NCBI GenBank assembly: GCA_021613535.1
Contig: CP075493.1
Coordinates: 3,844,001-3,908,000 of the forward strand
DNA length: 64,000 nucleotides
Direction of reading: 5' to 3'
From: Adineta vaga
Lineage: Eukaryota; Animalia; Rotifera
Under the pieces are notes generated by a model that searched no databases, was not told the DNA's origin, and worked only from the letters and a program-made list of their open reading frames with translations. The position numbers and the translations under genes are program-made. The first letter of the stretch is position 1. Each line of letters begins with the position of its first letter. Below are positions 5,589 to 46,844 of the stretch, in pieces.

Positions 5589-7007
5589 TTATGAAGATGT
5601 ATTAGGTAAATCTGCGGAACCATAGATCTGACAACGAAGTTGAACATTTTCTTGTTTTAAATGTGCATTTTCAAGTCGGAGTTTCAGATTTTCTTGTTCA
5701 AGCCAAGCCGCTCTAAAAATACAAGTAATCAATTGATTAGATGACATTTACTTTTTTCTTCTCTTACCGAAGTGCTATTTCATCTTCTTTTGCACGTCGT
5801 GCATCTCGACTACGTTTTGCTGCTTCATTATTTTTTCGTCGTCTTTCCCAATAAGCGTCATCTTTTGTATCAGACTCTTGATTTGTTTGTTGATTTAAAT
5901 TTGATGAAGAAATTTCTGGTGGTGGTGTATTTGGTCGATAACGTTTTTTTAGTGGAATTCCATTTGTTGTCGATGATGGACTATGAAGTTTATCTGATTG
6001 TTGATTGGATGATTTGATCGGTGAATCTTTGCCTCGACTTAATAAACGTTCTTGAGCTTGTTGAATACGTTTACGAAATTGTGAAGAAAAATCATCAGTA
6101 GATGAAGCCAAGACATTCAATAAATTATCCGACGAAGGAACTAGTGGAGAATAAAAACCAAGTGGTAACGATAGTGGATCACGTGGATAGGCTTTGAATG
6201 GACGAGTAGGTTTGCCATGTTTATTTCGAAGTAGTAATGGTGGTAACATTGAAATAGATGATGGATTTAATGAAGAAGATTGTTTATCTAGCTATATAAT
6301 TAAAAATTTTAGAAAATATTTATAGAAAAAAGTATGAAAATTACTAGATCGGTATCTTCATCATCAACACCATCCTCTTCATTATTATTATTATTATCAT
6401 CATCATCGTCATCATCAATTTCCATATCTTTTCTCCGAGTATTTGATGTTGTAGAAAAATCAATTGGTCCTATTTGTTGTTGCTGATGCAGTTGCTGCTG
6501 CTGTTGTTGTTGTTTTTGTAATGATTCAGCAAGGTATTTGAATAGTAATTGTTGATGATCATCATGTGTATTCTCTTCGTTTGATGATTGATCATGTTCA
6601 TCATCATGATGAGTTATTTGTTCCATTTGATCAGCTATGTCAGCCAAAAAATGAAGTTGTGGAGCGATCTAAAGTAAAGAACAAATAAGATTCGTTTTAG
6701 TGAATATGTATCAAACGGACAGAAAAAGAGCTAAAGCGAGTAAGTAAAACAGAGAGAAAGTATATGTGTCATCAGAGAACAAACTAATCATTATCCGAGA
6801 ACGATGAAGGGAATTGACATACGTTAATTGAACACTCAAATGGTGACGTCACAGGTAACATCGACTACTCATATGGATTAAGACAAAAAACGTTATCAAT
6901 CCAGATTGTTTTTGTACTTTTTTTCTACATAAATTTTATCTCTCAGTACATATCCAATTATTCTCTTAGCAAAGAAAAATAAAACTTTTTCTTAGATAAC
7001 TCACCAT
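5589..7007 (-). CDS. gt: giant-like PAR-related bZIP transcription factor, paralog 1
   Basis: Exons 7005-7007 (ATG only), 6345-6668, 5768-6291, 5589-5712. Basic region [45 protein letters not shown], giant-type RPFKAYPRDPL motif, PIDFS (CtBP-binding-like) motif, polyQ and acidic tracts. Confidence 0.8.
6844..6851. promoter_or_regulatory. Perfect CRE palindrome TGACGTCA in intron 1 of bZIP paralog 1
   Basis: Seen directly. The same element lies in intron 1 of paralog 2. Confidence 0.45.
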
Positions 7008-9575: not shown

Positions 9576-10859
9576 CTATGAAGATGCGTGAACCATACAT
9601 CGTAATTTAGCTGTTTCTTGCTTTAATTGTGATAATTCTAGTCGTAATTTGATATTTTCTTGCTCTAAAATTGCTGCTCTAAAAGATCAATATGACATTA
9701 TTTTATTGATAATAAAGAAAGACAGTGTTTTCTTTTTCTCTCTCTTACCTTAAGGCAATTTCGTCTTCTTTTGCACGTCGTGCATCTCGACTACGTTTTG
9801 CTGCTTCATTATTTTTTCGTCGTCGTTCCCAATAAGCATCATCTTTGATTCCATGATTGGCATCATCTTGATCATCATTAGCCGATATTTTTTCTTCATT
9901 GATCATTGAATTTTCCATAACTCGATGTCGTTTTTTTGGTGGTTGTAAAATTTGTGTACCGGATGAGGATATAAAATGGGTTGATTGTTGTTGCTGTTGT
10001 TGCTGTAAACGTTGTTTAAGACGTTCTTGTGTTTGAGAAAGTCGTTTTCGATTAAGTGTAGAATAACTACTTATATCAGCCATAAGATTAGTTTGTTCCG
10101 ATGCGGTTGTATTAGAACTGAAACCTAATGGTAACATTAATGGATCTCGTGGATAAGCTTTGAATGGTCGAGTTGGTTTTCCATTTTTATTTGTGAGAAG
10201 AAAAGGAAAATTATTTGTTGTTTGCAGATTTTGTAACATTGATGAGAGAAGTTGTTGATTAGGTGATAGTGAAGGTGGAGAAGAATAATCATTGATATCA
10301 TCTATTGAACGACGAGAAGAAAAGTCGATTGGACTTTCAGCTGTTGATGATGCTGATGATGTTGATGGTGGAGATATTGGTTCAAGTTTTTGGTGTTGTT
10401 GTTGTTGAGCTTGAAGTTGTGCTGCAGCTGCAGCAGCAGCAGCCATCACTGCTGCAACATTTTGTTGGGCAAGTAATTGCATTAATAATTCTTGTTGTTG
10501 TGATGGTGCAGACATGGAGAGAGAATCGATTGGAGTTTGTTGTTTTTTAGGTGTAGATGTTGTTGTTGTGATAGCAAGTTTCTTTTGTGAACATTCACTT
10601 TCAACTTTTTCAATCGCTTGTGCCAATAATTGAAGACGATGATGTTGTTGTTGTTGAGTATGATCTGTGTTAGGACTTAACGATGATTCTTCATTTTTCA
10701 CCGGACCAACCTATAAATAATAGACAAACAAATGATATCTTGTGTATTCATGACACATATTTGCGAATATGACGTCATTCAGATTTTTTCTTTTGATAAT
10801 TAGAATACAACAAACACTGAATAATCATTAAAGTCGATATTACTTCGTCGACTTACCAT
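9576..10859 (-). CDS. gt: giant-like PAR-related bZIP transcription factor, paralog 2
   Basis: Exons 10857-10859 (ATG only), 9749-10710, 9576-9678. Basic region identical to paralog 1, plus RPFKAYPRDPL, PIDFS, polyQ/polyA tracts and zipper RAAILEQENIKLRLELSQLKQETAKLR. Confidence 0.8.
10770..10777. promoter_or_regulatory. Perfect CRE palindrome TGACGTCA in intron 1 of bZIP paralog 2
   Basis: Seen directly. Positionally equivalent to 6844-6851. Confidence 0.45.
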
Positions 10860-14335: not shown

Positions 14336-15280
14336 TTATTGATGTTTTTCCGCTAACTTTACAGAAATAACTTCTTTATCATCACAATAAAATATATCAC
14401 ATTTTTTAAAATGAACTATTGCTGGTTGACCAAAAATCATATGCCACGTATATTCAAGTGTTCGACCTGTCAACTGATCGGAAAATTGACTAGCAATAAT
14501 ATAATCAATAATACTCGAATAAAATTTCTTTGGATGTTTAAGAATTTCTTCTTTTCGTGCAACAAATGATGCACAACAATGCCCTTTAATTCCACCTCTT
14601 GGCGGTGGACCGAGTTCTTTTTGTAAAACGTCTTTCCATAATTGAAAGTTAATTTTTGATTGCATATCTGCACTATTTTCATGAAAGAATGCAAATGTCA
14701 TTGTACTTGTCAATGGCATGTAACCATATTTATTCCAACGTAAAGCTCGTAGTGCAACAACAATATCTGACGGATCTGTTTGATGCCATGCATTTCTATG
14801 TCCATGAATAAATGCAACTAATGATGGTAAATTTGAATAATGATCAACAATATATCGAAGATAAGCAACAGCTTCTCGACCTTTATTTACCGGAATAGCA
14901 TGATTTATTAAACTATCTGATGATCGTGTATAAATAATATATGGTATTTTATCGCCAATATACAGAGCAAGCCAATTTAAATCTTCATTAAAATGTGAAA
15001 CGACAATAATTTTCGTTAGTTGGGAATTTGATAATTGTACAGATGAATTTTTCGTTTTATCAAGAGATATTTGAAGATAAGGAGTAGTATACTGACATTG
15101 ACGGTATGTATAAGAAAGAATTAATAGGAGTGTAACAAAAACTAAAGGTATTAAACGACGATAATCAATTGATAAGAAATAACCTATAAAATAATTCTAA
15201 GATTTTCCGAATATTCTTGCTAAAAAAACAAAGTCTTTTGTACCTTTTAATTTAGTAAAATATTCAGTAAACATTTTCAT
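14336..15280 (-). CDS. DUF3431-family glycosyltransferase-like type II membrane protein
   Basis: Exons 15244-15280 and 14336-15183. N-terminal TM segment, then IIVVSHFNEDLNWL, NKGREAVAYLRYIVDHYSNLPSLVAFIHGHRNAWHQ, CCASFV and GRTLEYTWHMIFG, which are DUF3431 signature blocks. Confidence 0.8.
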
Positions 15281-36175: not shown

Positions 36176-39100
36176 ATGTCGTCACTCTTACGTCTTCGCT
36201 ATTTCATTCTCAGTACAACTGTTGGTGGAAGCTATGTTGTTCATCAAGTAATTTTATTCTTTTGTCAAACTCCGTTACAACTATGATATAAATTTAGAAA
36301 TATAAAGAATTACAAGAGAAATTTCCTGATATGACATGGATAAAAGATTGTATATCTGAACAAAATACCAATATTTTAACAAAGCATTTAACTGACATCA
36401 CTAATTCTGTTTCACAACCTATTTCCGTATGATAATCTTCTTCATAGATTTAATAATACTTTACAATATTTTTTGTCTATCTAGACTAATCTACAGAATC
36501 ATCTTAGATATTTACATGAAACATTCACAACTTATCTGTTAACAGCAATTTCTCCAAGTAGAATCGTTTATGTAATCTATAGGAGATTCTAATGTTGAAT
36601 TCTGTTTTTTTTAAGGATTATTGCTTGCTGGTCCATCGTTCTTTTCAGATGATTATCAGTTAAGACCATCAGGTAAAATGCACAATACTTTCATTTCTTT
36701 TTGATGTATTATTTGTTTCCTTTTTTCTTAGCTGATCTTTTTAATTTGGCAAAAGCGTATGAAAATACTCACGCAATGACTGAAGAACGCGATAAACTAA
36801 GCAAAGTTTGTTCTATTATTTTATAACGTAAATCAATTTTCTTCTGTAGGCTGCGCAATATCAAAATCATGGCCAACAAGAAAAAGTTCAACAAGAAATG
36901 ATGACAATTCAAATAAAATATCAACGTGAAATTGATCGATTAGAAAAAGAATTACAATCATTAAAAAAACAACTTCTTCTTAAACAAGATCGTCATTCAT
37001 CGAGCAAAAAACAACGAAGACTTAAAGTTGATTTGATTTGATTCTTGTACTATATATATATATCTTTTTATTTGTTCTAGAAATCACTGATTGATATGTA
37101 TAGTGAAGTTTTGGATGAATTGAACGAATATGATACTAATTATAATATCCAAGATCATTTACCACGAGTATGTAGATAATATCGAAGATTGAATTGCCGA
37201 AAATGTTTTCTTTTCAACTTAGGTTATTGTTATTGGTGATCAAAGTTCAGGTAAAACCAGTGTATTAGAAATGATCACTCAAGCACGAATATTTCCTCGG
37301 TTTGTTAGAATTTAGTTTGTTTTCTATGAAAATTAATTTCTTCTAGAGGTGCTGGTGAAATGATGACACGTAGTCCAGTCAAAGTAACATTGAGTGAAGG
37401 TCCTTATCATGTTGCCATTTTTAAAGATAATTCAAAAGAATATGATCTAACGAAAGAAACAGATGTATGAATTGAATGAAATTGAAAAGATAAACGTTGA
37501 ATATTTTATTTTGTATATTTAGTTAGCCGCTTTGCGAAAAGAAATTGAACTTCGTATGCGAGCATCAGTCAAAGAAGGTCAAACGATTAGTAATGAAGTT
37601 TGTTGAAAATCGTCTTGATGAATTCGAATGAAATGAATGAAAATATTGTTTTAGGTTATTTCATTGTCAGTTAAAGGTCCCGGTCTTCAACGTATGGTTC
37701 TCGTAGATTTACCTGGAATCATTAGTGTAAATTAATACGAATTTCTTGAATATGAGATTTTGTTTTTCGTTTTAGACAGAAACACTTGGTATGGCATCAG
37801 ATACAAAGAATTCTATTACTCGTTTAGCGAATAGTTACATGTCAAATCCTAATGCAATTATTCTTTGTATTCAAGGTAAAGAATTCTCTTGAAAATATCC
37901 ATTGATGTTAATTATGAAATTCATTAGATGGTAGTGTTGATGCTGAACGTAGTAATGTAACTGAACTTGTTTCAAAAATGGATCCACATGGCAAACGAAC
38001 GATATTCGTTTTGACTAAAGTTGATTTAGCTGAAGCAAATCTTCATGATACTGATCGAGTGAGTAGACGAAAAGAAAAGTTTTCTTAAAAAATTTCTCTC
38101 TTTTTTTGTTTAGATAAAAAAGATTCTTGATGGAAAATTATTTCCAATGAAAGCTTTAGGATATTTTGCAGTCGTTACTGGAAAAGGTTTGATTTTGATT
38201 GTATTTTTCACGAAAGATTTCAACTTTCTATAGGTAGTGCTGATGATCCAATTGAGTCAATACAGAAATATGAAGAAGAATTTTTTCGTAAATCAAAATT
38301 ATTCCGGTATGAACAATTGTTTTATTCGATGATTTTAACTTCTTGATGATAAATTCATTTAGAGATGGCGTATTTAAAGCAACACAAACAACAACACGTA
38401 ATTTAAGTTTTGCTGTTAGTGATTGTTTTTGGAAAATGGTTAAAGATAGTGTTGAACAACAATCAGATACATTTAAAGCAAAACGATTTAATTTAGAAAC
38501 TGAATGGAAAAATAGTTTTACAAAAATTCGTGAACAAGATCGAGTTTGTTCTTTTCATTCAAGTTTCATTTGTGATTGTACTTTCTTTTCAGGATGAATT
38601 ATTTGAAAAAGCTCGCGGAGAAATTCTTGATGAAGTTGTTAATCTTAGTCAAATACCTAGTCGTCAATGGTATATTTTATTTTGAATAATTGTTAAAAGA
38701 TACTTGATTTATTCCTTCTTAGGGAAGAAAATTTATCAAAACATCTCTGGTCAACAATGTCGAATTATATTTTCAATGATGTATTTTCTACTGCTGCTGA
38801 AACGACATCAGTCGGGTAAATGATTTCCTTGAGAATTCTATTTAAATAATTTTGTTTCGTTTTGTTTTTAGTGCTTTTAATACTACAGTTGATGTTAAAT
38901 TAAAACAATGGGCAGAAAAAGAATTACCACATCAATGTGTTCAAATAGGTCATCTTGTTTTATTAGATGAATTTCAATCATTAATTGAACGTGATCAAAA
39001 AAGTCGATCATATGATCCAGTTACACATGATTTGAAAATGCATGTTGTTCAAGCATGTCGATCAAGACATCAGTGGGATGCAAAAGCACTTGATTCACTG

Positions 39101-40189
39101 GTGAGAGAACGAGTGTTTTTTGTTTGTTAGTAATTTCGAATTGAAATGATGATAGAGAGTAATTCAAACTCAAGCATTACAAGATCGAAACGTACCGGAT
39201 AAACAGCAGTGGGAGTCAGCTGTTAAATTCATGGAAAATTCTGTACGAAATGAATTAGAACGTGAAGAATTGGAATTAATGTCAAATACGAATCAAAGTT
39301 CATGGAAGAGATATATTGGTTTAGAAAGATCTACCATAGAAGAAAAGCATCGTCAACAATGTGTTAAAGAATTAGATAAAGTTTTAACTGGAAGAAGACA
39401 ATTAGATCAAACAATGAAACATAATCAGACGGTAAGATTAGATCTTAAACATACATATATATATGAGAAACTTTTGTTTTAGTTTCAATCAACTCTCGAT
39501 CAAGATGAATTGACTACTGTAAAGAAGAATCTTCAAACACAAAAAATTGATGTATCCAATGATTTTGTATGTTTTATTTCTTTCATGTTTTTATTGATTC
39601 GAACATGTGTTTCTTGTCCTAGATTAATGAAACATGGCAACGTGTATATAAAATATATTTTCTCAAACAAAATCTAAATACCTGTGTGGATTGTCGACGA
39701 TTTTTCTATTATTATCAAAAAAGTTTTTCTGATCAGGGTGTATGTTTGTTTAGCTTGGTTATGAAATTAGGATTTATTTTTGTTTTATCTATTCTAGCTT
39801 GATTGTCGTGAGGTTGTATTCTTCTGGCGTTTAAAAAGAATGATTGAAATAACAAGTAATGCTATTCGACAACAAATATCAAATATTGAAAGTATGTTTT
39901 CTCCTATAATGTATATTATTCAAAGAAATTGATGATCGTTTTTTTTTATTCTTAGCTCGACGATTGGAACGAGAAGTGAAAGAAATTTTAGATGATTTCA
40001 GTAGTGATGAAACTTTGAAAGCAAATCTTTTAAAAGGAAAACGAGTTGACTTAGCAGAAGAATTAAGTAAGATATTCTTTCGTTTTTCTAATAAAGGTTC
40101 AAATGAATGATTCTTATATTTCAGAACGTGTTCGACAAGTTCAAGAAAAACTAGAAGAATTCATTGCAGCATTAGGTGCAGAAAAATAA
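36176..40189 (+). CDS. OPA1: Dynamin-like mitochondrial fusion GTPase OPA1
   Basis: [100 protein letters not shown]. About 24 short introns. The true start may lie upstream (~36105). Confidence 0.95.
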
Positions 40190-40568
40190 TCCGGTTGTTC
40201 GATACTTCTTCGATGATTCTAATATGAATTACTCTTTTATGAATTCTTCTAGGAAATCCCCTCATTAGTCTATGTAAACCTATGATCTATTTTCAGTTTT
40301 CTTTTCGTATTCGACGTTATTTTTATGATAAAAGCCAGTAAAAAAATACTATTGCATACACATCAATATCCTCTAGTTATATGTAACACTCGCCATAATA
40401 TAGATTGTATTCAAGAACTCCTTTTATATATTCTCTGAGAAAAGAATACAAAGATGCAGATACATTTCCCTTATTTCTGTCAATATAAAAAAGTATAATA
40501 GAAAGAGAATTTCTTCAAATTACCATTCCACTTGAAAAATTGCTGATAATCATCATGCACGTAGTTCT

Positions 40569-42562
40569 CTAAGTTGTTTTAAATGATACGAGATGATAAT
40601 GATCCATATCCAGAACATGTGGATTGATCAAATGATGTTGAACTAACAAACCTACTGTTGTCAATGCAAGTTTTTCTTCCACGGCTGGACCACGATTCTG
40701 CCAGTACTCACCAAATACACCATGTGAATCAGCGGGATTTAACTCACTCACACGATATCCAGACATTGCAATCCACACTGTCAAACGATGCATATCTTGA
40801 TCAGCTATCAATACAGGTACACATCCTTTGTATTTACTTCGATCAAATTCATCAACAAACGCTTGATAAACATCATCGCGTCGACCTTCTCTCAAATCGT
40901 TAGCAAATATAGGTAAAGCAAATACAATAGCAACGATATTTTCGAAGATTGCTCCATCTTCTTCCAATACTTGTCGAATGGCTCGTGCGGAAAGTGCTCT
41001 AACTCTTGCATCGATACCAATATGTCTTCCGGCGAACACGCCAAGTCCGATGCCAGTTTCGACAACAACCTGAATACCCTCTTTGTCACATGCATACAAT
41101 CGAAGTCTTGCCATTCGCATGAGATCAGCGAGAAGTTGCTGTTCGAGAAGTTGAGCACGAGGAGCTTTTGCTTTGATACGAAAATCTCGGCCATTGTACA
41201 CAAATGGAAAACCTGTTCTTGGATCGATTTCATAGACATCTGGCCAATTAGCGACATAAGTAGTGATATCGTTGATATCATGAATGCGACCAGCGAAATC
41301 GATACCAGTGACCGAGACAAGTTTGATACGATGAGGCCAATCGTGTTTGAGTTCTCGTTGAATGAGATGAGCATCGAATTCCATTAGGATGGGACATTGT
41401 GAAATACGAACAACGAACTTCATAGCAAACGCTTCGGCGCCTGATTTGGTTAATCCTTGAAGAGCTCGACGAAGAAAGGTTTTACTTATACCGATCGCGT
41501 CTTCATCTGCATAGACTTTGTATGAACGTTGCCAATCGATAATTTCTTGTACAGTCATTGCAAAAGAGGTTCTTCCATTGCCGGGAAATTTGATGATCAT
41601 GTTTGGATCGAGCAGATACGGAGCTCTACCCAATTGGAATGATTTCACACCATGAACAATATATTCTCCAGCAACATTTCTGAATTGAAATGTTTGTGCA
41701 AGAAATGTTTCCATTTGAGTTGTTTGGTAGTCACAATCGCCACTCATCGGTCCATTTTTATCCATTGGAGCTAGTTTTCCAATACTTTCAAATAATTGGA
41801 GAATCTGTTTATTCATAGTAGGATGTGCATTGAAATAAATACTTTGATATGGATCTGAATTCGTCTGTGAAATTGGAGCTACATCAGTTACGCGTCTTCG
41901 TGTTTGTGGTGGAGGATTCGATCTTGGTGGCATAGGTAGATCAGATGCATTTCGTTCAGTTTGTCTATCCGAAATAAAACCTATTTCTGGTGGTAACGAA
42001 TAACGTGAGGTTCGTGGAGAGAAAAGTCGTTGTGTATGTGATGAAGGAAACTGTTTTCCTCGTGTCGGTGGAGGATTTGCTTGTTGCGCTGCAACAAGTG
42101 TTTTTTCAATTTTAATTAAGTCAGATGATACTATATCTTTTTTAACTAAATTTAATTCATTTTGTTGTTTTACATATTCTCCACAAGTTTTCAGTAAATT
42201 ATTTAAATTTTCCATATCACGATCTGTATATTTATTTGTACGTTTTTTCGAATGAAGTTCATTGGAAATCTTATTCAACGAATTATTTATTTGAGTATTG
42301 GATTCTTTAATTAATTGTTGAATTTCTGTTCGAACTTTTTTTGCTGCTAATTGAATCTTTCCAATTGAATCTTTTTCCCATTGACCAATTTGATTCAAAA
42401 GATTCTTTTCCGTTTGTGCTTGAACAACACGTTGTTTTAATTTCTCATGACGTTTTTCGATGTCATTCATTTGATTTGACACATTCGCTCGACTATTATC
42501 TAAATGATGAACATAATTTATATTTTCACTGCTTAATAAATTTGATACTTACCACGATTCAT
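40569..42562 (-). CDS. Coiled coil + MavL/DUF4804-like (permuted PARG-type) macrodomain protein, copy A (intact)
   Basis: Exon 1 42553-42562 (ATGAATCGTG), 53-bp intron, exon 2 40569-42499. N-terminal coiled coil LLNQIGQWEKDSIGKIQ. C-terminal ETGIGLGVFAG, ELNPADSHGVFGEYWQNRGPAVEEKLALTT and QHHLINP. The domain assignment is by motif recall. Confidence 0.65.
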
Positions 42563-45500
42563 AGTTAATTTTTTGTCTAATAACTTGTTTTCTTTTCCAG
42601 TTCAGTAAATGAAGAATGAAATTAGTTTTTCTAGTCAACATCAGAAGTGCAAGGAAGAAGAAAAATATCGTGTAATTTTTCTTCGTTCTCATGCACATGC
42701 ATTTTTCTCGTTTATTTTTGTGTTTTTAAGCAATCTCAGGTAAGAAAAAACACAACAACAGTAGTGAAGATGAATGTCAAACGATATGTTTCATTAGAAA
42801 CAACATCGATTTTTCATTTTTGTCATAATAAACAGTAAACTTAAACAAATGAAGAATCTTGCAAATAATTCATGATGAAAAGTGATTTGCAAAGATCTGG
42901 TAGCTTTGTAGTTGAATTGAATCCCTAAACGTAAAATACAGAGAAAAATGAAGATTGTTGGAAGAATTTGTTTGCATCTTCTTGTTCGATTACATCGTAT
43001 GAATCGATGTTCACATTGAATTTCATGCGCTAGATTCCGAATTAGTTCTTTTGTTTCTTGAAGTATTTGAATTATTTTTGCCATTTGCTCTTTAGTTGGA
43101 GTATCAGTTTTCTTTAATTGAAAAATCAATTCTTTATTGAGAAAGAAAGAAAGAATTGGTTACATATCGATAATATGAAATAAATCTATAAATACGTTCT
43201 GGTAATTTGAATGCATGATAGTTCACTTGATTGATCAACAGCTAATTGAAGAAATTCATCGCGAAGTCGATATCGTCCTGTTGAACTGATTTGACATTCG
43301 ATAATTTCGAAATTATCAAGGAGTTTGTTTCAAGCAGAAGTTGAATTGAAATCAATAGTCTTCGTTATGCTCTTTTTTAATTTGAATGAAAAATATGAAC
43401 GAATTGTCTTATTTCTCTCTCCATTGTTTTTGTCGTACTACTTTTTTTTAATGGATTCCACCAATTATTTGGTCTTGCTTTGATTTGTTGAAATTTAATG
43501 TTCTGACGAACAACTATCGTATCTAATTCATATGGTAAAACGATTTTCATTGTTTTATCATGAATAGCAATTGTATGAAATAGAAATTCAAGAAATATCA
43601 ATTTACCTCGCCACTGAGCATATGCATCTTGAGGGTGAGAGTATATAACGACTGCGATCAACCGCACAAACCATTTCATTTGCCCACGGAAGAATGAACG
43701 TTCCAGGTGCTAAATGCCAATTATACCAGCTATCTATATTACTCTATATATTATAGGAAAGTTGAGCAGTGACAAGATCGTATGATGAAGAATAAAGGTC
43801 ATGAAGAGAACGAAATGCTTGCACAGATGGTATGGTAAATCTTCTTCAATAAACCAAACAAATGAATAATTAGTAGAAATTCGTGAAAAATAATAAAGGG
43901 CTTTCTTCCATGCTGTACATATTTTATTCGAGCCGAGTACATTAGCTTGTTGTTAACCATATTTGATAGCAATCGGTTCATTTACTTGAAAAAATCGTAA
44001 AGATGACGATGACGATGATGATGATAATGATGGAATTGAAACATTTTTATCGTCGACCACAATAAAAATATCGATAGCTGGAATACCTTTGATCGGTAAT
44101 ATACAAATAACTAGAGGAAAAAAAGTATCACAAGCTGGTCTACGCATACTTTGACGAATACAATGATAAATATTCGTAGTATCGACTATGACACTTAGTA
44201 TTTCAGGTGTTACCTCTACCAGAATAAAAATTAATAAAATTAAATATTTTATCTTCACTTGTTTTTACGGTAAAATTTATATCAGCAAGAAACATAGATG
44301 CGTTTAATCAATGTTTTTTTCCCAGATATATGTAAATAACGGGTGATAGAATAGCTTTTGGACAACATGTTGAGAGCTACAATTCCTATATAAAAGGTAC
44401 TAAGACATTTTTTTTGTATTGTTTGGATAGATTGTCACAATCTCTATTTGTGATATAAATACGATCGATCTTCGTGAATATGTTTTTTCTACGCTTGAAC
44501 AGCATAGTAATATTTAAAAAAACGATACAGTAAACCATTTGGCATTCGACAGATTTAAAAGATCAACGGCAATTTTTTAATAGAATAAAACGTTACAAAA
44601 ATGGCCGAATAAAATCAGTATTTTATGGCATCACTATTTGAGAAAGCGAAATATTTTTAGTGTAGTCTGACTTATAGAAATTATTTTTCAGTGTATCTTG
44701 CTGCTATTATAGAGGCTTAAGACTCTTCTTATAGAATAATGTTCCATAATGATTTTCTTAGAGAATCTTCAACTAGTAAACGACTTTTGGAACGTTTCAT
44801 TCGATTATAAACTGCCGTTGATCGATCGTATTTAAACGATAATTATCATGTGCTCTTCTTGTTAACACAGAGATTTATTCAAGTGAAAACTTTCATTATT
44901 GAAAGAAAATCAGTAATATAAAAAATTGCCAGTATTTCATAGCTATAGCGGTGTTGTCGGCGTTTTCATTGATACGAGACGATAATGATCCATATCCAGA
45001 ACATGTGGATTGATCAAATGATGTTGAACTAACAAACCTACTGTTGTCAATGCAAGTTTTTCTTCCACGGCTGGACCACGATTCTGCCAGTATTCACCAA
45101 ATACACCATGTGAATCAGCGGGATTTAACTCACTCACACGATATCCAGACATTGCAATCCACACTGTCAAACGATGCATATCTTGATCAGCTATCAATAC
45201 AGGTACACATCCTTTGTATTTACTTCGATCAAATTCATCAACAAACGCTTGATAAACATCATCGCGTCGACCTTCTCTCAAATCGTTAGCAAATATAGGT
45301 AAAGCAAATACAATAGCAACGATATTTTCGAAGATTGCTCCATCTTCTTCCAATACTTGTCGAATGGCTCGTGCGGAAAGTGCTCTAACTCTTGCATCGA
45401 TACCAATATGTCTTCCGGCGAACACACCAAGTCCGATGCCAGTTTCGACAACAACCTGAATACCCTCTTTGTCACATGCATACAATCGAAGTCTTGCCAT

Positions 45501-45942
45501 TCGCATGAGATCAGCGAGAAGTTGTTGTTCGAGAAGTTGAGCACGAGGTGCTTTTGCTTTGATACGAAAATCTCTACCATTGTAGACAAATGGAAAACCT
45601 GTTCTTGGATCGATTTCATAGACATCTGGCCAATTAGCGACATAAGTAGTGATATCGTTGATATCATGAATGCGACCAGCGAAATCGATACCAGTGACCG
45701 AGACAAGTTTGATACGATGAGGCCAATCGTGTTTGAGTTCTCGTTGAATGAGATGAGCATCGAATTCCATTAGGATGGGACATTGTGAAATACGAACAAC
45801 GAACTTCATAGCAAACGCTTCGGCGCCTGATTTGGTTAATCCTTGAAGAGCTCGACGAAGAAAGGTTTTACTTATACCGATCGCATCCGTCTGCATAGAC
45901 TTTGTATGAACGTTGCCAATCGACAATTTCTTGTACAGTCAT
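40583..45942. repeat. Near-identical ~1-kb direct repeat pair (40583-~41560 and 44969-~45942) covering the macrodomain-coding region
   Basis: Constant offset of about 4386 bp; the translations are identical from DAIGISK to DMDHY. Confidence 0.9.
43377..44258 (-). pseudogene. Decayed GT-A glycosyltransferase-like gene ('AWDKALYYF...VWFIEDD' type)
   Basis: Reading through the defects gives a signal anchor, KYG*QQ...CTAWKKALYYF...YSFVWFIEED/IPSVQAFRSLH...PWANEMVCAV/...FLEFLFHTIA...ELDTIV...NNWWNPLK. Defects: GTG start, TAA 43953-43955, frameshift ~43838, TAG 43744-43746, second frameshift ~43635. It may extend to ~42980. Confidence 0.65.
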
Positions 45943-46844
45943 TTTGAACGAATCACTCGTACGTCTTGGAAAGTCTATTTGCATGTTTGGATCTAATGTC
46001 TGAAGGGGCCTGCCTAATCGAAATGATTTAACACCGTGAACAATACATTCATCGGAACGATTTTTGAATTCAAAATTTTTTGCAAGAAACTTTTCCATTT
46101 GAGTTGTTTGGTAGTCACAATCGCCACTCATTGTTCCATTTTTATCCATTGGGGCTAATTTTCTTAGCTCTTCAAATAAACTTTTCATTTTCCGAAGATT
46201 AGACTTATTGCCAGAAAAAACTACATTTTGGTGTTCGTATTGTTGCTTTAACAGTGTTTTCTCTAGCAAAACGGATGGCATAGGTCGATGTTCGTTAGAA
46301 GGATCAACTTCTGATGTTTTACTTTGCTTATTTATTGTATCGATTACAACATCGACTGATGACAAATCAGCCAAACGTAGTTTGATTTCAGATATGCGCT
46401 TTAGTTCTTGTTCATTCGCGTCGAGTAAGTTTTTCCATTGCAAAATATCAGTTTTTGTATATTTTTTATTCTTTAATTTTGCATTAAATTCACAGGTGAA
46501 ATTTTCAATGGAATCATTTATGGCTTGGTGTGAAGTTTCTATTTCTTGTTTTAATAGCTTTTCCCCTTGTTTGGCTTTAGATTTAATATGTGCTAAAGAT
46601 TCTTTTTTCCATTTATCTACCTCGGATAATAATGTTTTTATGGGATTGTTTTCACGAAGACTGTTTGTTAAATCGACCGTTTGCTGTTCGAGACGTTTGA
46701 TTTCATTTACTAATGATGATGATGATTGCGAGGATTGATTTTGCTTTGAATCTCTGATCTTCGAACAGCCACATTTCCAGTGTGGGGAATATGTCTTCTG
46801 ACAGAAGTGGACTTTTGTTCTTTTTTTTGTCTATCTGTACTCAT
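44943..46844 (-). pseudogene. Coiled coil + MavL/DUF4804-like macrodomain, copy B (frameshifted as sequenced)
   Basis: A 2-nt deletion relative to copy A at ~45886 (GCAGACGGATGCG vs GCAGATGAAGACGCG) splits ORFs 45868-46443 and 44943-45926. The upstream frame stays open to ~46830, and the ATG at 46844 is one base out of frame across an A8 run (46821-46828). Confidence 0.6.

Follow-up and report, generated by a model that had tools for sequence, protein, structure and literature searches.

A candidate ADP-ribosylhydrolase family with a Larg1-type permuted macrodomain in bdelloid rotifers and protists

A gene from Adineta vaga, a bdelloid rotifer, lying on the minus strand of a 64,000-nucleotide window (the whole stretch of DNA that was analysed), encodes a protein of 646 amino acids in which a coiled coil and a low-complexity linker precede a 400-residue domain. 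As modelled, this domain is a member of the known circularly permuted macrodomain class of Larg1, MavL and DUF4804, and its predicted active site is a hybrid, a Larg1 scaffold carrying the acid pair of PARG. Judged by sequence searches, it belongs to an unnamed family of bdelloids (where it is expanded), protists and scattered bacteria. Very probably the domain hydrolyses some ADP-ribose linkage. That it removes O-linked ADP-ribose (PAR chains or ester-linked single units) by means of a PARG-like glutamate pair on the Larg1 scaffold has, in our view, close to an even chance. The permuted class itself was already described; what appears to be new is an unnamed family within it with a hybrid active site.

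Fold and predicted active site

The domain and its residues of interest are as follows.

40572..41780, minus strand: permuted (Larg1-type) macrodomain region, residues 244-646, from the AlphaFold2 model, structure searches and a match of the family profile to Larg1 at E 6e-9
41034..41054, minus strand: diphosphate-binding loop G486-I-G488-L-G490-V-F492, aligned to Larg1 G279, G281 and F283, from profile alignment
40794..40796, minus strand: D572, aligned to the adenine-binding D351 of Larg1, from profile alignment
40674..40739, minus strand: predicted catalytic loop N591-E612, from two profile alignments and column counts

An AlphaFold2 model of residues 244-646, built from 95 sequences, reached pLDDT 95.7 and pTM 0.94. 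Foldseek ranked Larg1 first (E 2e-14), followed by the Drosophila proteins CG2909 and CG3568 and then MavL. In a wide structural search only 4 of 48,161 chains had a Z of at least 8: Larg1/Lpg0081 (Z 29.0, rmsd 2.8 Å, 302 residues aligned at 19% identity), the fly DUF4804 protein CG3568 (Z 21.1), MavL (Z 19.6) and D. radiodurans PARG (Z 9.1). The alignments to the first three cover 262-310 residues and extend to the C-terminus, while with canonical macrodomains the alignment mostly stops at about residue 320 or begins only after it. In the permuted topology the opening segment of a canonical macrodomain is moved to the end (PMC9191684, in part). The reversed order of motifs relative to bacterial PARG, claimed in an earlier sequence-only reading of this DNA, is borne out by the fold search and by the family profile, which fits T. 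curvata PARG as two swapped pieces (221-297 on PARG 201-274 and 301-358 on PARG 61-119; weak alone, with a whole-sequence E of 0.037). The same reading had proposed searching a structure model for a macrodomain fold, and the fold was found with Larg1 on top. Its assignment to the MavL/Larg1/DUF4804 class holds, and the nearest solved relative turns out to be Larg1, not MavL or DUF4804. These matches came from structures and profiles: a single-sequence search of the PDB gave no match at E <= 10, no Pfam model scores the window domain as high as its cut-off, and no NCBIfam model, TIGR02452 included, matches at E <= 1.

Larg1 (Legionella; PDB 7WBK, 7W3S) is an Arg-specific ADP-ribosylhydrolase with which the rotifer domain shares the permuted macrodomain and aligned NPxD, G, W, E, Q-H and NP positions. 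Identity is 16-19%, and Larg1 is an effector that is secreted and has a transferase as its partner, whereas the rotifer protein is the product of a spliced animal gene and carries a coiled coil. With MavL (PF24754) and the DUF4804/MavL-like proteins (PF16062; Drosophila CG2909 and CG3568) it has the topology class and the GxGxGxF loop in common, but identity is 10-14%, PF16062 is unmatched at E <= 1, and PF24754 matches weakly, over nothing but the GxGxGxF loop (E 0.018; 14.4 bits against a cut-off of 27). In our searches Larg1 has a closer relative in the rotifer and protist family than in MavL or DUF4804; PMC10951314 (in part) describes Larg1 as a distant outlier and limits its report of DUF4804 to bacteria, fungi and arthropods. 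Bacterial-type PARG (TIGR02452; T. curvata 3SIG, D. radiodurans 5ZDA) shares the macrodomain core and a LNxxS/D...G-x-aromatic...A-x-EE loop with both glutamates, which aligns with one gap at PARG A-Q-E-E. It differs in the order of its motifs, in its GGG, reduced here to one Gly, and in the Q of QEE, replaced by V, L or T.

The motifs quoted from the sequence, and their order, were all found in the minus-strand frame 40569-42548: GIGLGVF (41034-41054), then NPADS...GEYW...AVEE (40674-40739). We followed them through the full-domain homologues (203 of 287 collected proteins), which fall into a near group of 161, mostly bdelloid and redundant, and a far group of 42. Residue equivalences are sequence-profile alignments with Larg1 numbering from PMC10989772 (in part), and the register of the Larg1 loop was identical between a profile that includes the named rotifer proteins and another that leaves them out. 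In the diphosphate-binding loop G488 is present in 203/203 homologues, and G490 and F492 in 201/203 each. Its core GxGxGxF (G486-F492) is present in the window protein, with E484 at the leading [VIL] position of the pattern [VIL]xGxGxGx[FWY], which in its strict form occurs in 8/203. The D572 column holds Asp in 159/161 near-group rows and 6/42 far-group rows.

In the catalytic loop, D594 is equivalent to Larg1 D372, E601 to N379, Y602 to the E380 column, E611 to E387 and E612 to S388; E611 aligns with the first and E612 with the second PARG Glu. Four of the six residues essential in Larg1 (D372, N379, E380, E387, F283, D351) are therefore kept, namely as D594, E611, F492 and D572. No homologue has an acid at the E380 column (0/203). 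The EE pair is kept in 196 of the 203, including all 42 of the far group, as the sequence-only reading had it; the pair is no trait of Larg1, which has E387-S388, but is PARG-like. The MavL/DUF4804 catalytic loop WDxx[S/A]xPGN[D/E][F/Y][F/W/Y] (PMC10951314, in part) occurs in 0/203, its first Asp and Gly being kept and its N and D/E not. The PARG signature GGG-x6-8-QEE likewise occurs in 0/203, and only its EE is kept. E601, conserved in 152/161 near-group rows, could stand in for the lost acid of the E380 column. Conserved residues specific to the family are N591, D414 and Q624-H625. In seven paralogues (P0069, P0087, P0137, P0246, P0036, P0083 and P0118) EE is changed to QG, QE, EG or GE, and these are candidates for copies that are inactive or re-specialised.

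Gene, transcript and rotifer scaffold

The gene, its N-terminal regions and a neighbouring copy are placed as follows.

42553..42562, minus strand: coding part of exon 1 (start ATG, residues 1-3 and one base), from the sequence and a spliced contig with 92 letters on the exon 1 side
42500..42552, minus strand: GT-AG intron of 53 nt, no other having been found in the coding region, from splice signals and the joint 42499/42553 in runs X13 and X15
40569..42499, minus strand: exon 2, residues 4-646 and stop, from the open reading frame and RNA-like contigs
42090..42497, minus strand: TRIM-like coiled coil, about residues 5-140, without a B-box in this copy, from its lack of Pro, 31% E+K+Q and homology to B-box-bearing paralogues
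41814..42104, minus strand: Pro/Ser/Thr/Arg-rich linker, about residues 136-232, probably disordered to judge by its composition (16% P, 11% S, 9% T, 10% R)
44943..46830, minus strand: tandem paralogue, with the last 309 aa 99.4% identical and a divergent front part

The span 40569-42562 had been read from the letters as a single coding frame, which proved wrong in that the intron interrupts it after the ATG at 42562. We take this ATG as the start because an in-frame stop lies upstream at 42602-42604 and because of the intron splice. The splice joint was seen in contigs of two of the eight runs, from two studies; contigs of the other six runs are without it. Runs were taken as RNA-like solely from splicing (no run is recorded as RNA), and contig depth cannot rank expression. 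The gene is transcribed, since contigs that splice the introns of its neighbour also span its copy-specific stretch, 41718-42481, where RNA-like contigs differ at 3 of 764 nt. That neighbour, which lies upstream, is OPA1 (PF19434); nine GT-AG introns are spliced from it within 1.6 kb. The 3' part of OPA1, at 38500-40435 on the plus strand, lies tail to tail with the macrodomain gene; RNA-like contigs of OPA1 reach about 40435 and those of the macrodomain gene start at 40338, so that the positions overlap, and the two 3' UTRs may overlap as well.

Contamination or a bacterial insert is ruled out by the spliced intron, by the tail-to-tail, intron-rich OPA1 and by homologues in three named bdelloid genera; the gene sits within a bdelloid chromosome. 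Codon comparison shows it to be under purifying selection, with dN/dS of about 0.11-0.27 for 19 matches in 16 AT-rich metagenome loci, dS being near saturation and several of the loci near-duplicates. In the matches at these loci the domain is a single unbroken match in each. At three AT-rich metagenome loci (L008, L009 and L011, probably of one species) family genes stand in head-to-tail tandem pairs, and Adineta vaga has members at the adjoining locus tags I4U23_020435-020437, plus 020456.

Along the 3' part of the domain the two copies in the window show 7 differences in 890 bases, and just upstream their identity is about 70-80%. In an unspliced (DNA-like) run, depth is about 2x over the part common to both, and variants occur that are in neither window copy. 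The pattern suggests that gene conversion evens out the catalytic half of the tandem copies as their front halves drift apart, though the near-identical tract may also be an artefact of assembly. The paralogue is frameshifted near 45887 in the window, and contigs of three RNA-like runs (one study) cross 45887 in frame; the difference at its second indel, 46755, is present in six runs including the DNA-like one. Rather than a fixed pseudogene, the window copy of the paralogue is probably a mis-assembly or a broken allele.

The N-terminus had been likened to the TRIM-like coiled coil of bdelloid B-box families. The coil is indeed present, but without a B-box of its own: no Pfam match to RING or B-box was found in the protein, the start of which is fixed by the splice and the upstream stop, and residues 5-135 hold one Cys. 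Among 129 close homologues, 61 are stand-alone domains (gene models may be truncated), 23 have a B-box-like Cys/His motif before the coil, 25 have a coiled coil without such a motif, and 20 have other extensions. One protein, P0081, gave a weak Pfam match to an ANCHR-like B-box, below cut-off (E 0.0014). The coiled coil matches none of 24 homologues tested outside the bdelloid clade (protist, bacterial or without taxon name), and its look-alikes in the ESM Atlas form rotifer-only clusters. Together with the 23 B-box-like motifs, the first of these results upholds the earlier idea of a domain grafted onto a host scaffold, here that of the rotifer.

Two copies of the protein are predicted to pair through this coil in antiparallel orientation. 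The homodimer prediction scored 0.70 against 0.00 for the best control, its runs shared at least 92% of contacts (for example 30/63, 41/52 and 45/45 in chain numbering), and pLDDT was at least 82. The prediction was made without the alignment. The mark that it passed is one that 17 of 29 eukaryotic homodimers reach, against 0 of 30 single chains, and likeness to solved coiled coils may account for the pass. An antiparallel coiled-coil dimer is the geometry of TRIM proteins. The long coil and the B-box-like motif of the homologues are shared with TRIM and B-box-coiled-coil proteins, and the predicted dimer would be too, whereas the gene lacks both RING and B-box and ends in a macrodomain in place of SPRY or NHL.

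Substrate and role

By alignment to Larg1 and PARG, the diphosphate would rest on the GIGLGVF loop and the adenine on D572, with the distal ribose held by D594, E601, E611 and F492. E612 would be the acid at the glycosidic bond, like the second Glu of PARG, and would take over from the acid of Larg1 E380 and MavL D323, the column of which is Tyr here. In PARG the catalytic residue is the second Glu, and Larg1 is without the Glu pair (PMC9191684, in part). Against this O-linked, PARG-like reading stands the absence of the complete PARG signature from all 203 homologues, and also the fact that all four tested members of the class act on Arg only. In a substrate panel MavL, Larg1, CG2909 and CG3568 cut only Arg-linked ADP-ribose, with a phosphate-activated water, and MavL and the two fly proteins were inactive on PARylated PARP1 and MARylated PARP10 (PMC10951314, in part).

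Those assays also speak for a mono-ADP-ribosylhydrolase that shares its Arg specificity with Larg1, MavL and the fly DUF4804 proteins. In it E612 or E601 would replace E380, and it would reverse Arg-ADP-ribosylation by bacterial toxins or by the animal's own transferases, the immune role put forward in the sequence-only reading. TRIM-like scaffolds are often immune proteins, which would suit a role against toxins. Moreover, Larg1 is the closest relative in both fold and sequence, and the equivalents of its D372, E387, D351, G279, G281 and F283 are kept. We nevertheless find Arg specificity rather unlikely, as the E380/D323 acid is missing in 203/203 homologues. This acid is needed for activity in Larg1 (PMC10989772, in part) and in MavL (PMC10951314, in part); E380 of Larg1 attacks the Arg N-glycosidic bond, and the E380A protein binds ADP-ribose yet is inactive (PMC10989772, in part). 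The column put on Larg1 E160 by a non-significant alignment, a lead only, is Ala in 185/203, and at the one named bacterial locus no obvious transferase was seen by eye among ORFs of at least 100 aa.

The binding by E380A can be turned into an argument for a non-catalytic reader of ADP-ribose, since the family is without that very acid. The coiled-coil dimer would then present two binding domains and recruit or cluster ADP-ribosylated proteins, comparable to the C-terminal domain of TRIM proteins, and both the TRIM-like architecture and the few paralogues in which EE has become QG, EG or QE would agree with it. However, EE is near-invariant from rotifers to euglenozoans and bacteria, beyond the usual need of binding alone, and in some members the macrodomain is fused to a separate reader, a WWE domain, which suggests that the macrodomain is the enzyme; we rate a pure reader as improbable.

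The WWE domain is fused in 20 of the 40 matches of a distant-profile search, Bodo and Diplonema among them, and all 20 keep EE. A rescan confirmed it in four of four cases and in one more. The model of the Bodo homologue matched Larg1/MavL at E near 1e-10 and, separately, WWE structures. WWE domains read PAR or ADP-ribose (PMC7404130 and PMC11269756, each in part), and several also bind mono-ADP-ribose (PMC11269756, in part), so these fusions tie the family to ADP-ribosylation independently of fold. They lie in a distant subfamily, the Euglena member of which matches the window domain at E 4e-5, and they may represent one event.

Together with the coiled-coil fusions they suggest macromolecular substrates, which weighs against another ADP-ribose substrate such as ADP-ribosylated DNA or RNA ends, or NAD-derived O-acetyl-ADP-ribose or ADP-ribose-1''-phosphate. 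That reading would account for a loop that departs from the PARG consensus as well as from that of MavL, for the family's own conserved residues (N591, D414 and Q624-H625) and for the stand-alone domain of 61/129 homologues, a count in which gene models may be truncated; we rate it as improbable.

Under the O-linked, PARG-like reading the domain might contribute to resetting PARP signalling, the animal being one in which many PARP copies are induced after radiation and rehydration. In bdelloids, drying and rehydration bring an enrichment of ADP-ribosylation genes, and PARP genes are induced, 17 after radiation and 9 after rehydration (PMC10809525, in part); a role in recovery from stress, which the sequence-only reading had put forward for desiccation, is suggested only by this context. 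A bolder proposal, which we consider doubtful as a whole, is that of a permuted PARG, a missing link between PARGs and the Arg-specific Larg1/MavL erasers, that would have retained the catalytic Glu pair and would degrade PAR. It would be targeted by WWE in euglenozoans; in bdelloids, having come from a protist, it would have been amplified and placed on TRIM-like dimers, giving them a second PAR-turnover system of foreign origin for an enlarged PARP response to desiccation and radiation. The family allows a direct test of how a macrodomain pocket switches between O-linked and arginine-linked ADP-ribose, and it adds a candidate family of erasers for protists and bdelloids.

Family range and origin

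An unfiltered search returned 115 representatives. Among the best 120 of 220 matches, all rows with a taxon name are Adineta or Rotaria, with 59-75% identity in non-self rows; Didymodactylos also has the family. Named non-rotifer members, among the matches listed, are Pelomyxa, Trimastix, Paratrimastix, two dinoflagellates, Euglena, Diplonema, Bodo and one Marinamargulisbacteria genome, and no other animal is found among the organism names of these matches. The nearest named non-rotifer relatives among the matches listed are protists, not bacteria. A scan of contigs with one bacterial protein matched only its own locus, and P0189 had no match in the metagenome scan. Margulisbacteria were set aside as a reservoir, the family being present in 1 of 146 of their genomes (which may be incomplete). 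Searches of the open-access literature turned up no account of the family, nor of enzymes of this kind in bdelloids, and the available part of PMC11668277 mentions neither rotifers nor protists.

Fusions other than WWE involve EF-hands, a caspase-type domain and a piece of MutS. In the Rotaria proteins P0121, P0242 and P0248-P0251 the family macrodomain stands behind a caspase-type (Peptidase_C14) domain, and the EF-hand-fused members P0133, P0138, P0149 and P0148, which include one of the dinoflagellate Durusdinium, are possibly calcium-regulated. At rank 3 in the ESM Atlas is a separate cluster of 71 members, of which 32% match PF24754 (MavL) and the commonest phylum is Rotifera; a second family of MavL-like proteins may exist in rotifers.

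In a tree of 40 rows (17 of 57 having been left out as long, gappy or redundant), the 11 bdelloid-group rows form one side of a branch with SH-aLRT 96, Didymodactylos being sister to the rest. The bdelloid group lies inside a larger group (SH-aLRT 98), the named members of which are protists, and the tree of 57 rows shows the same pattern. When the Marinamargulisbacteria pair was constrained to stand next to the bdelloids, the resulting tree was not rejected (p-AU 0.34). On balance we lean slightly towards a microbial eukaryote as the donor; a bacterial donor seems unlikely, and an ancient gene lost from other animals somewhat less likely again. The history would have been a single horizontal acquisition before the diversification of bdelloids, probably from a microbial-eukaryote source, followed by duplication and by fusion to B-box/coiled-coil and other rotifer modules. 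A viral donor was rejected: no family member turned up in IMG/VR with two queries or in phages, giant-virus structures have only 8-13% identity, and an Atlas cluster of Nucleocytoviricota (0.91), with a recognition value below threshold, is a lead only.

Elsewhere in the window, a long ORF at 14336-15196 (minus strand) matches DUF3431 at E 1e-41; this family is mainly fungal, and the ORF is possibly another foreign gene. Two bZIP genes at 5764-6291 and 9745-10710 (minus strand) lie about 4 kb apart and have basic regions that are alike.
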